Shown: positions 46,323 to 63,454 of the stretch, one piece after another | Numbering within the stretch: the stretch's first letter is position 1 | Layout of the letters: each line of letters opens with the position of its first letter | DNA from: a virus | Direction: 5' to 3' (one strand) | DNA: 64,000 nucleotides | IMG/VR virus record: IMGVR_UViG_3300040751_001853 | Notes under the pieces: generated by a model | What the model was told of the DNA's origin: nothing | Seen by the model: only the letters and a program-made list of their open reading frames with translations | Database searches by the model: none | Position numbers and translations under genes: made by a program

Positions 46323-46949
46323 ATGACTACTACAAACTCATACAATAGACAACCTACTAAATTGGACTATGCAAGTCCTACACAGTTTAAGTTTAGTTTG
46401 ATTAAGTTGCCAAAAGTTGAATACTTTTGTACAGCTGCAAATATTCCTGGTATCACTTTAGGTACTTCAAATTTAGCTACACCCTTTAAAGATGTACCAA
46501 TGCCTGGTGACAAACTAGACTATGATACATTAAATATTTCTTTTTTAGTAGATGAAAATTTAGAAAACTATAGAGAAATACATGGATGGATGACAGGTCT
46601 TGGATTTCCAAAAGACTATTCACAATTTAGAACATTACAATCTGCTGGAACAGATAGATATCCAACAACAACAAATGAAACTTATTCAAGTGAAATAGGA
46701 GTGACTTCTAAAAATACTCCTGATGATGGTGGTCTATATTCTGATGCTACACTATTTGTATTAACAAGTAAAAATAACTCAAACATAGAAATAAGATTTA
46801 GAGATGTTTATCCAATATCACTATCTGGATTAGATTATAATCAACAAGCTACAGATGTAGATTACTTAACAGCTAGTGTTACATTTCAATATAAAATATA
46901 TGAGTTTGCAAATATTAGTGCTACAGGTACTTTAGAAACTACAACATAA
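46323..46949 (+). CDS. gp3: Tail completion and sheath stabiliser protein
   Basis: PTQFKF...YFCTAANIPGI...PGDKLDYDTLNISFLVDENLENY; GATAAATA 5 nt before the ATG. Confidence 0.88.
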   Translation: MTTTNSYNRQPTKLDYASPTQFKFSLIKLPKVEYFCTAANIPGITLGTSNLATPFKDVPMPGDKLDYDTLNISFLVDENLENYREIHGWMTGLGFPKDYSQFRTLQSAGTDRYPTTTNETYSSEIGVTSKNTPDDGGLYSDATLFVLTSKNNSNIEIRFRDVYPISLSGLDYNQQATDVDYLTASVTFQYKIYEFANISATGTLETTT

Positions 46950-61234: not shown

Positions 61235-61564
61235 ATGACAAATTTTAAAGATAATAGTGGTTTAGAAAAATACAAACCAAAAATGTCACAAGAAGAACGT
61301 GATGAAAAAATGAAAAAGTTTTTAGCGAAGGGTGGAAAGATTGAAAAATTAAAACCAGGATACCCTATTAGTGTAGGTAGCTTAGATAAAAGTAAAAAAC
61401 CAAGATATACAAAAGAAGATGTTTCTAAAGGACTTGCTGTTGGCAAAACAGCCAGACCTAATTATGATACATATAAAAAAGGATCATACCACGACTTTGA
61501 TGTTGGTGGTGATAACCCACCTAGGTGGGAAAAACAACCTAAAAATGAGATGGGAGGTAAATAA
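61235..61564 (+). CDS. Hypothetical protein with a SutA-like RNAP-binding motif
   Basis: EERDEKMKKFLAKGGKIEKLKP resembles the SutA core (ERDALAKAMEEFLSRGGKVQEIEP, recalled). Confidence 0.55.
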   Translation: MTNFKDNSGLEKYKPKMSQEERDEKMKKFLAKGGKIEKLKPGYPISVGSLDKSKKPRYTKEDVSKGLAVGKTARPNYDTYKKGSYHDFDVGGDNPPRWEKQPKNEMGGK

Positions 61565-61567
61565 TAG

Positions 61568-61810
61568 ATGTCAATTACAGTTGAAGTAAGAGGTGGCAAT
61601 TTAGAGAAGGCTATGCGTGTACTAAAGAAAAAAGTACAAAGGTCAGGAATTATGCAAAGTATAAAAGATAAAAAATACTTTTCTAAACCATCAGAAATAA
61701 AACGTGAAAAAGCAAAAGAACGTTCTAAAATAATCAGAAAAGCACAAAAGGCTAATGATGAATTGTTAGGATATACTTGGATAAAAGGTGTAAAAATAAA
61801 GAAAATATAA
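61568..61810 (+). CDS. rpsU: Ribosomal protein bS21
   Basis: VEVRGGNLEKAMRVLKKKV...YFSKPSEIKREK. Confidence 0.9.
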   Translation: MSITVEVRGGNLEKAMRVLKKKVQRSGIMQSIKDKKYFSKPSEIKREKAKERSKIIRKAQKANDELLGYTWIKGVKIKKI

Positions 61811-62045: not shown

Positions 62046-62078
62046 GTTGACAAATAAAATATCGTACTTATATAAATA
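62046..62078 (+). promoter_or_regulatory. Composite promoter for hsp20: RpoH-like or sigma70 plus T4 late
   Basis: GTTG-N17-CTTATAT, TTGACA at 62047 and TATAAATA at 62071-78. Confidence 0.55.
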
Positions 62079-62080
62079 AT

Positions 62081-62145
62081 ATTGAATATGCCAAATGGGT
62101 ATTCGATATAAAGATAACTTTGCTTAAACAAGGAGGTTAATTATG
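62081..62145 (+). promoter_or_regulatory. ROSE-like RNA thermometer in the hsp20 5' UTR
   Basis: UUGCU (62120-24) pairs with SD AGGA (62131-34) with a bulged G inside a 10-bp stem; a second hairpin lies at 62081-62107. Confidence 0.7.
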
Positions 62146-62586
62146 ACTAATAAAGCATTATCTATTTTCAATCAATTAAGACCACTAACCGTAGGATTTG
62201 ATGACACGTTCAGACATTTTGAATCAATGTTTGATCATCAGTTAGATCATATCCAAACTACAGCTTTTCCTTATTACAATATAGTAAAACAGGATAAGAA
62301 TAAGTACGATATTGAAATCGCACTTGCTGGTTATAATAAAAAAGATATAAACATCGACCTTGAGGAGGGTGTTTTATCTATTGAGTCTAAAAAAGACGAA
62401 AAGGAAGATACTAAAGATGGAGAAGTAATCCATAAAGGTATCGCTAAAAGATACTTTAAAAAATCTTTTACAATCGCTGAAGACGTTGAAGTTAAAGGCG
62501 CTGAACTAAAAGACGGCTTGTTAAGGGTGTCTTTAGAGAGAATAGTTCCAGAACATAAAAAGCCTAGAACTATCTCAATCAAATAA
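62143..62586 (+). CDS. hsp20: Small heat shock protein Hsp20 (IbpA-like)
   Basis: FPYYNIVK, IEIALAGY, HKGIAKRYFKKSF and GAELKDGLL. Confidence 0.95.
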   Translation: MTNKALSIFNQLRPLTVGFDDTFRHFESMFDHQLDHIQTTAFPYYNIVKQDKNKYDIEIALAGYNKKDINIDLEEGVLSIESKKDEKEDTKDGEVIHKGIAKRYFKKSFTIAEDVEVKGAELKDGLLRVSLERIVPEHKKPRTISIK

Positions 62587-62594
62587 TAAAACCA

Positions 62595-62627
62595 ATATCT
62601 GGTATGTTTCAAACGCATACCAGATAT
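62595..62627 (+). terminator. 12-bp perfect hairpin after hsp20, overlapping the next late promoter
   Basis: ATATCTGGTATG / CATACCAGATAT; weak U-tract. Confidence 0.55.
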
Positions 62628-62632
62628 AAATA
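62625..62632 (+). promoter_or_regulatory. T4 late promoter TATAAATA driving the riboswitch transcript
   Basis: Exact consensus 6 nt before the aptamer start. Confidence 0.75.
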
Positions 62633-62638
62633 CTTTAT

Positions 62639-62686
62639 ATCGTTCAACTCTTATGAGTCGGAAGTAAGCAAATGCTGAAGGAACGC
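62639..62686 (+). ncRNA. Glutamine riboswitch (glnA RNA motif, glutamine-I class)
   Basis: ATCGTTCA-ACTC ttat GAGT-CGGAAGTA-AGC aaat GCT-GAAGGAACGC. P1 CGTTC/GAACG, P2 and P3 hairpins, and conserved GGAAGUA / GAAG junction match the glnA-motif consensus. Confidence 0.85.
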
Positions 62687-62709
62687 ACCTAACTATAAAC
62701 GGAGGGTGT

Positions 62710-62865
62710 ATGAATTTTAAATGGGATTTAAAAAAAATCTTTACTGAAAGAAGTAGAGAAAATTCTGCTAAAGCTCAATTGAGAAAAAGATCAAAAGACT
62801 CAATCGCAAGACCAAAAGCAGAAAAAAATATCACATCAAAAGATCCAAGATTGCAAAGCATATAG
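62710..62865 (+). CDS. Riboswitch-controlled 51-aa basic peptide (not in ORF track)
   Basis: GGAGG RBS at 62701-05. MNFKWDLKKIFTERSRENSAKAQLRKRSKDSIARPKAEKNITSKDPRLQSI, with 15 K/R vs 6 D/E. Confidence 0.75.
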   Translation: MNFKWDLKKIFTERSRENSAKAQLRKRSKDSIARPKAEKNITSKDPRLQSI

Positions 62866-62869
62866 AGTA

Positions 62870-62898
62870 TTGACAATTTTGACAATATAGTGTAAACT
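62870..62898 (+). promoter_or_regulatory. Sigma70-type promoter for peroxiredoxin
   Basis: TTGACA-N17-TAAACT. Confidence 0.7.
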
Positions 62899-62929: not shown

Positions 62930-63454
62930 ATGAAACAAGGTGATAAATTACCAGAAGTAAATTTTAGAGTAAGATCACTTGGTCAATGGACAGAAACAAC
63001 TACTGATACTTACTTTAAAGATAAAAGAGTTATACTGTTTGCTTTACCAGGTGCTTTTACTCCTACATGTTCAACTCAACAATTGCCAGGCTTTGAAAAA
63101 TTAGCTGACGTGTTTAAAGAACACGGCATAGACGACATTTATTGTTTATCAGTAAATGATTCGTTTGTTATGAATGCTTGGGCAGCTGATCAAAAACTTG
63201 AAAATGTAAAAGTTATACCAGATGGAAATGGTGACTTTACGGATCAAGTTGATATGCTTGTAGAAAAAACAATTGCAGGTTTTGGAATGAGATCGTGGAG
63301 ATATGCTGCTATTGTAAACAATGGTACAGTAGAAGCCTTATTTGAAGAACCAGGTAAAGGTGATAATACAACAGGTGATCCTTATAGCGTAAGTGCACCA
63401 GAGAATGTGTTAAAATATTTACAATCATCATCTATTGACTCAAATTCAATTTAG
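62930..63454 (+). CDS. Peroxiredoxin (Prx5-like)
   Basis: LFALPGAFTPTCS, SVNDSFVMNAW and RSWRYA. Confidence 0.92.
   Translation: MKQGDKLPEVNFRVRSLGQWTETTTDTYFKDKRVILFALPGAFTPTCSTQQLPGFEKLADVFKEHGIDDIYCLSVNDSFVMNAWAADQKLENVKVIPDGNGDFTDQVDMLVEKTIAGFGMRSWRYAAIVNNGTVEALFEEPGKGDNTTGDPYSVSAPENVLKYLQSSSIDSNSI

Follow-up and report, generated by a model that had tools for sequence, protein, structure and literature searches.

The window (the whole 64,000-nucleotide stretch of viral DNA that we analyzed) carries on its plus strand a hairpin, a T4-type late promoter motif, a glutamine riboswitch aptamer, a Shine-Dalgarno (SD) region, and an ORF for a basic protein of 51 aa (Table 1). These features follow genes for a CobS-like AAA protein, a SutA-like ORF, ribosomal protein S21, and Hsp20 (stop at 62586), and they precede genes for a peroxiredoxin (prx), a DUF3310 protein, and an ORF in the sliding-clamp position, which is called a clamp by synteny only. 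The Hsp20 protein is 67% identical to that of Pelagibacter phage Mosig and 62% identical to that of HTVC008M, which has the same CobS-S21-Hsp20-...-clamp backbone with a 2OG-oxygenase gene in place of the cassette. The shared backbone and the Hsp20 identities imply that the window is pelagimyophage-like (T4-like) and that the cassette occupies a variable slot. The virus is related to those of the ocean bacterium SAR11, and the cassette is inserted between the hsp20 and peroxiredoxin genes of a pelagimyophage-like (T4-like, Kyanoviridae-type) genome.

Two further observations concern the upstream genes. A 109-aa ORF with a weak match to the SutA RNAP-binding domain (E 7e-4, below the cut-off) adjoins the phage S21 gene (61235-61810). 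In three metatranscriptome runs, the summed contig depth over hsp20 (62139-62493) was several-fold to tens-fold above that of the neighboring genes, which fits real uneven transcription, contig depth being a poor measure.

Table 1. Positions of the features of the cassette in the window.
Feature	Position	Strand	Basis or remark
13-bp hairpin	62595..62627	+	After the hsp20 stop; 3' arm runs up to or into the late promoter motif TATAAATA
T4-type late promoter motif TATAAATA	62625..62632	+	Exact match; transcript start predicted at about the first aptamer base
Type-1 glutamine riboswitch aptamer	62639..62689	+	RF01739, full length
Anti-SD strand GCACCU	62685..62690	+	G62685 common to P1; contains the presumed linchpin C62686
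SD GGAGG (62701-05) and sequestered GGGUGU (62704-09)	62701..62709	+	Sequence, fold, and covariation
51-aa basic protein ORF	62710..62865	+	ATG at 62710; 15 K/R, 6 D/E, net charge +9

Glutamine aptamer, late promoter, and expression platform

An Rfam search matched the aptamer interval to RF01739 over model positions 1-53 of 53 with a score of 67.3 bits (E 9e-13), compared to a gathering threshold of 35 bits, and this was the sole Rfam match at the gathering threshold in the window. The full glnA-type aptamer of the original prediction, which had been made from the sequence without database searches, is confirmed by this covariance-model match. The aptamer comprises P1 (62641-45/62681-85), a P2 hairpin, a GGAAGUA/GAAG E-loop, a P3 hairpin, and a 3' tail with the conserved C62686. 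For comparison, phage leaders were gathered in two ways, through homologues of the 51-aa peptide and through a scan with an aptamer pattern, of which the matches listed were used, and 73 distinct leaders were aligned (alignment A4) and their pairs counted on a specified structure. In these 73 leaders, drawn from the matches listed, P1 and P2 are paired in 100% and P3 in 94%; all three helices show compensatory, double-sided changes, and in P2 and P3 every pair does so. The E-loop strands CGGAAGUA and GAAGGAACG are preserved, with the GGAAGTA and GAAG.AACG columns invariant in the alignment. Judged by its sequence, the element is a genuine type-1 (glnA) glutamine riboswitch and an ordinary, high-scoring member of the known class, and the conservation of all consensus positions suggests that the phage aptamer binds L-glutamine. 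The record nearest to the window (G001) has no RF01739 match, and a megablast search of the region against phage records returned no match.

An exact TATAAATA motif lies 8 nt upstream of P1. The raw count of this motif in the window is 11, which is no excess over shuffled sequences. However, all 11 copies (positions 12659-62632) are on the plus strand and none is on the minus strand. Coding sequence fills ≈80% of the plus strand, yet all 11 are intergenic, and from each of them an ORF start is reached within 6-79 nt; the box at 62071 precedes hsp20. Moreover, [A/C/T]TAAATA occurs upstream in 65 of 115 unique phage glutamine leaders from IMG/VR among the matches listed, and in 58 of these 65 its end is separated from the CGTTC of P1 by 5-9 nt. 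Because of this strand and intergenic bias and the conserved spacing to P1, the reading of the motif as a T4-type late promoter directly upstream of the aptamer, which had been proposed from the window alone, is well supported. On this reading, the transcript would start virtually at the aptamer. As a side product, the 11 boxes give a clean late-promoter map for this phage.

The hairpin that follows hsp20 has a predicted free energy of -17.2 kcal/mol (z -7.2 compared to shuffles), and its stem shows compensatory changes in three related loci (L160, L161, and L192). It probably serves the upstream gene as a 3'-end or insulator hairpin. It could act as a terminator or stability element, or as a modulator of promoter access.

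Downstream of the aptamer, a linker of 13 nt leads to the GGAGG, and the sequestered strand GGGUGU ends 1 nt before the AUG. The pairing of GCACCU with GGGUGU, which the original prediction had proposed, is present in both the MFE and centroid folds, and the MFE fold holds the aptamer hairpins and the anti-SD helix simultaneously; the MFE of the whole leader is no better than that of shuffles (z -0.65). Conservation of the helix was scored as contiguous pairing between the 9 nt from the last G of P1 and the 20 nt before the AUG. By this measure, 94 of the 115 unique leaders among the matches listed have an anti-SD helix of at least 5 bp, and pairing of each tail with its own SD region averages 5.56 bp compared to 5.00 ± 0.056 bp when tails and SD regions were permuted between loci (500 permutations; leaders among the matches listed). 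In alignment A4, the helix is paired in 97% of the 73 leaders and in 30-50% when the partner strand is slid by 1-3 columns; the percentage paired is inflated, because A4 was pre-selected for a helix of at least 5 bp, whereas the compensatory types are not. Three of the five aligned anti-SD pairs have changed on both sides (for example, C-G in 45, U-A in 20, and U-G in 5), and the covarying types across leaders include CACC/GGUG, CACU/AGUG, CAUC/GAUG, CGCC/GGUG, and CAAUC/GAUUG. Thus, the proposed pairing is both conserved and covarying.

This arrangement corresponds to the model of the gifB riboswitch of Synechocystis, in which the conserved C and the following nucleotides pair with the RBS in a helix that glutamine is postulated to melt (PMC6212724). 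In the phage leader, pairing of the tail C and the nucleotides after it with the RBS was found in the fold, by covariation, and in the permutation test. The gifB riboswitch is ON in vivo by experiment (PMC6212724), and by homology with it the phage leader (62639-62709) is probably a translational ON switch. Direct competition with the bound aptamer would involve only two of the six anti-SD pairs (G62685 and C62686).

We lean toward reading the locus as a self-contained late-gene cassette of a pelagimyophage-like genome, composed of a late promoter, an ON riboswitch, and the 51-aa gene. The phage late transcription machinery would start the mRNA at about 62638-40 from TATAAATA, and the first 51 nt of this mRNA would fold as the type-1 glutamine aptamer. 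Without glutamine, the tail GCACCU would pair with GGGUGU and occlude the spacer before the AUG together with the 3' half of the SD. When L-glutamine is bound, P1 would close and the conserved tail C would enter the long-range linchpin pair, upon which the short anti-SD helix would melt and the 51-aa protein would be translated.

It is unlikely, in our estimate, that the RNA acts in another way, either as an OFF switch in which the bound aptamer and the anti-SD helix coexist and stabilize each other, or through mRNA stability or read-through into prx. Such action would agree with the joint presence of aptamer hairpins and anti-SD helix in the MFE fold, with the lack of a terminator after the 51-aa ORF, which may let late transcripts reach prx at 62930, and with the statement of Klahn et al. 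that the mode of action of the gifB switch "remains unclear" (PMC6212724). However, ON behavior was found for the one type-1 switch that has been studied in vivo (PMC6212724), the helix sits on the SD and AUG in nearly all phage leaders listed, whatever gene follows, and prx has its own SD and promoter-like site. The latter is a sigma-70-like site (TTGACA-17-TAAACT, 62870-62898) between the peptide stop and the peroxiredoxin gene; together with the lack of a terminator, it implies that prx may be read both from an early-type promoter and by late read-through.

The 51-aa protein family and the mobility of its leader

The ORF behind the switch is a real, conserved gene under purifying selection. 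Its relatives form 292 protein clusters, almost all of 51 aa, which have no Pfam match and no names, and 548 IMG/VR loci encode a relative. The ORF is 51 codons long in 77 of the 77 viral loci in which it could be delimited. Median pairwise dN/dS is 0.19 among 55 unique coding sequences and is lower over residues 19-51 (0.14) than over residues 1-18 (0.41). The 51-codon basic ORF that had been proposed from the window is thus upheld both by its relatives and by the selection acting on it. The family shares an invariant core, QLRKRSK.S.ARP...N, which includes an invariant RKR cluster, and a C-terminal DPRLQ.I within the tail motif ARPKAEKNI[T/L]S.DPRLQ.I. Net charge ranges from +7 to +11 across the family, and hydrophobicity is very low. 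An AlphaFold2 model based on the family alignment predicts one helix (residues 3-33) and a conserved extended tail (pLDDT 77), and sequence- and model-based analysis suggests that the peptide is partly disordered. The peptide matches no feature in Pfam, PHROG, PDB-profile, or ESM-Atlas searches. An exhaustive profile search returned 55 representatives at 50% identity, which are 31-125 aa long except for one marginal match of 283 aa (E 4e-4), and none of the 55 links the family to a known larger domain.

Among ≈185,000 prokaryote genomes, only four stray MAG or SAG contigs carry the gene, one of which is Mosig-like and has the same riboswitch, which implies that the gene is phage-only. The isolates that carry it are Pelagibacter phages only (HTVC104P gp51, HTVC103P, HTVC023P gp47, and Mosig_00116), and all of these proteins are annotated as "hypothetical". 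By these sequence comparisons, the 51-aa protein appears to be phage-only and strongly conserved and, as judged by the isolates, pelagiphage-specific. In other contigs, 50-aa variants with the same C-terminal motif are encoded behind glutamine leaders, where they adjoin a major head gene. Contigs from the metatranscriptomes of four studies span the leader and the ORF without any difference; as contigs, they indicate only presence in RNA libraries.

Mosig carries the same aptamer and a 51-aa ORF (51% identity) in a different genomic neighborhood. The aptamer-bearing peptide loci are T4-like and fall into several settings (window-type, Mosig-type, L061, L022, and L161/L192), and in L061 the cassette is placed between the genes for a baseplate hub and a minor coat protein. 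We conclude that the unit of late promoter, aptamer, and peptide gene moves as a whole. The linkage of peptide to aptamer suggested by the original prediction therefore holds in T4-like contexts and is not obligate, since the aptamer is upstream in only about 15-17 of the 77 peptide loci and roughly four fifths lack a riboswitch.

The leader also occurs with other genes. At least 10 unrelated families of basic peptides, 16-65 aa in length, are encoded behind phage type-1 leaders whose promoter, tail, and SD are nearly the same, which implies that the leader acts as a portable module that is joined to different genes at their start codon. The families behind these leaders (L082-L200) include W-C-[FY]-K peptides of 28-38 aa, NGxGTSGY peptides of 64 aa, MTYRPF peptides of 33 aa, MTKYQ...NPFYP peptides of 49 aa, and YRG/DUF4278-like peptides, among others. 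Several of these phage leaders are tandem aptamers.

Possible functions of the 51-aa protein

The majority of the peptide loci are podophage-like, lack the aptamer, and lie in pelagipodophage-like contigs. The gene order there is DNA polymerase and phrog_3704, the peptide gene, sometimes small Cys-rich ORFs, and a gene for a transmembrane (TM)/coiled-coil protein (phrog_20984), downstream of which are genes for a 71-73-aa protein with a hydrophobic N terminus and then an M15 endolysin. The small ORFs that intervene between the peptide and lysis genes vary among loci. The phrog_20984 protein is 121-130 aa long, with one N-terminal TM segment, a coiled coil, and a weak Rz-like spanin match (E 0.002). 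Its gene is within 500 nt of the peptide gene and on the same strand in most aptamer-less loci (38 counted), and the peptide stop overlaps or abuts its start (0-9 nt) in at least 10 distinct loci from three phage backbones. This close spacing suggests that the peptide gene in podophage-like loci is often translationally coupled to a spanin-like/M15-endolysin cassette. One contig (L045, 233-1609) contains an operon for peptide A, the TM/coiled-coil protein, a 71-aa protein with a hydrophobic N terminus, peptide B, and an M15 endolysin, all of which overlap or abut, and this order implies that two paralogues of the 51-aa gene lie inside one lysis cassette.

The synteny with lysis genes is the only positive functional lead for the peptide, and it favors a role in lysis or a late function no less than a role in nitrogen metabolism. 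There is no homologue of phrog_20984 in Mosig, HTVC008M, Melnitz, or the window, which implies that any partner of the peptide in the myophages would be more general or host-derived. When the peptide was co-folded with the TM/coiled-coil protein, without controls, the score was 0.00, an outcome that counts neither way. The maximal 18-residue hydrophobic moment of the peptide is 0.24, compared to a mean of 0.46 in shuffles, and its mean hydrophobicity is -0.46; this low moment and the lack of Cys imply that the peptide is not membrane-active in character and would be a soluble regulator or partner. Disruptin (phiKT gp28-like) is a cationic lytic peptide, whose amphipathic cationic helix disrupts membranes, and a disruptin-like membrane-lytic role was rejected because of the low moment. 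An identity as an o-spanin or a holin was rejected as well, as the peptide has no TM segment, no Cys, and no lipobox.

Our tentative interpretation is that the peptide may be a cytoplasmic accessory or regulatory factor of a lysis or late module, whose dose in the myophages would be tied to the host glutamine pool. A narrower form of this idea, which we regard as improbable, is that the peptide is a lysis-timing factor resembling an antiholin, a holin regulator, or an endolysin regulator, glutamine-switched in T4-like pelagimyophages and hard-wired in the lysis cassette of the podophages. The T4 protein RIII is reportedly a small cytoplasmic antiholin. It offers a functional analogy only, in that the timing of lysis could be tuned by a small cytoplasmic protein that is soluble and helical and whose gene accompanies the lysis genes; the analogy of the 51-aa peptide to it is a lead from synteny. 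If the narrower form is true, the phage would read the host glutamine pool late in infection to decide lysis, which would amount to metabolite-gated lysis timing by a viral riboswitch.

There is also a small chance that the peptide is a general basic protein associated with nucleic acid, ribosomes, or virions. It might, for example, condense DNA, be an internal protein, or modulate translation beside the neighboring phage S21, and as the peptide is rich in Lys/Arg, it would be made only when nitrogen is plentiful. The net charge (+7 to +11) and very low hydrophobicity of the family, the position of the gene under a late promoter, the occurrence of at least 10 unrelated families of basic micro-peptides behind phage glutamine leaders, and the S21 gene 1 kb upstream are consistent with this role. 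By contrast, the extreme conservation of the C-terminal linear motif (dN/dS 0.14) suggests one defined partner, and the peptide has no similarity to known ribosomal or internal proteins.

The original prediction had suggested a small basic effector, possibly an inhibitor of glutamine synthetase or another nitrogen-status regulator, made as the phage senses host glutamine late in infection. In this reading, the peptide would be a functional analogue of IF7/IF17 that, when glutamine is high, binds and inhibits the glutamine synthetase of SAR11 or another nitrogen-status regulator. Such a role is suggested by analogy only, and we consider it very doubtful. The analogy draws on the main target of cyanobacterial type-1 glutamine riboswitches, gifB/IF17, and on the dependence of IF activity on arginines (PMC6212724); in addition, the 51-aa peptide is a small and basic molecule that is disordered in part and has an invariant RKR cluster, and other phage glutamine leaders precede YRG/DUF4278-like peptides. 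However, 16 family members gave no Pfam match to DUF4278/IF17 (PF14105-type) at E up to 10 and lack the YRG motif, in agreement with the earlier remark that similarity to IF7/IF17 is not obvious, and neither sequence nor profile searches show a resemblance to any Pfam family or PDB chain. Moreover, the riboswitch-free copies, about four fifths of the sampled loci, are in DNA-polymerase and lysis settings beside spanin-like and endolysin genes, not by nitrogen genes, and the four stray contigs noted above do not amount to a host homologue. These results count against a glutamine synthetase inhibitor.

Relation to known glutamine riboswitches

The gifB switch (RF01739) and the phage element share an aptamer family, the pairing of the tail C and downstream nucleotides with the RBS, and a small basic product (Klahn et al. 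2018, PMC6212724). In contrast to gifB, which is NtcA-regulated, the element studied here is phage-borne in a non-cyanobacterial host lineage and has a T4-type late promoter, and its predicted product is unrelated to DUF4278/IF17. The Downstream-peptide motif (RF01704), a type-2 glutamine riboswitch found before ORFs of 17-100 aa in marine picocyanobacteria (Weinberg 2010, PMC2864571), likewise places a glutamine aptamer directly before a short conserved ORF. However, its architecture differs (a pseudoknot type unmatched here), and its ORFs are mostly DUF4278, unlike the 51-aa ORF.

The original prediction also knew of no description of this system in this phage group, a view that is not supported, because Buchholz et al. 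(2022, PMC9004378) had reported glutamine riboswitches in the Methylophilales phage Melnitz, in Pelagibacter phage Mosig, and in 10 MAVGs of pelagimyophages. T4-like cyanophages also carry glutamine riboswitches (PMC9602691, PMC9964418). The elements of Buchholz et al. belong to the same phage group and RNA family, and that of Mosig is an orthologous riboswitch with the 51-aa ORF. The Melnitz switch was read as controlling tmRNA (ssrA), with speculation on lysis timing via a curli pore, and the regulated peptide was not identified in that study (PMC9004378). The switch in the window differs in that it has no tmRNA nearby and precedes a peptide ORF; ARAGORN finds no tRNA or tmRNA in the window, which rules out tmRNA as the regulated target there. 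In Melnitz itself (MZ577097.1), the aptamer (46398-46446) is followed by a platform of the same anti-SD design (CACUU.../...GAGAGUG) and, on the plus strand, by a basic ORF of 32 aa (MTLYQQWCYLK..., W-C-[FY]-K family). The unit spans 46398-46567 of MZ577097.1 (L220 999-1168), and the record annotates just a minus-strand ORF at the position of the 32-aa ORF. These observations re-assign the published pelagimyophage and Melnitz glutamine riboswitches from tmRNA to unannotated micro-protein genes, of which we found no description in the literature.

Thus, the riboswitch class and its presence in this phage group were already known, and the family of the target protein is newly reported here. The new elements are a pelagiphage micro-protein as target, the portable-leader architecture, and the synteny with lysis cassettes. 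The analysis defines a conserved family of 51-aa proteins that is confined to phages and is represented at 548 viral loci and in four cultured pelagiphages. It also describes a portable leader, composed of late promoter, aptamer, and anti-SD helix, which is joined to no fewer than 10 unrelated families of micro-peptides. In the ocean, SAR11 and its phages rank among the most abundant of all biological entities. Mosig and HTCC1062 can be cultured as a pair, which makes the riboswitch and the role of the peptide, in lysis timing or nitrogen metabolism, directly testable.

RF01739 also occurs outside phages. In a small-genome marine bacterial order that includes G002, a MAG labelled Rickettsiales, 20 of 46 species genomes carry chromosomal RF01739 matches, which contradicts the literature statement that the class is limited to cyanobacteria. 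The copies in this order (L206-L213) are often tandem and have long and differing downstream platforms.
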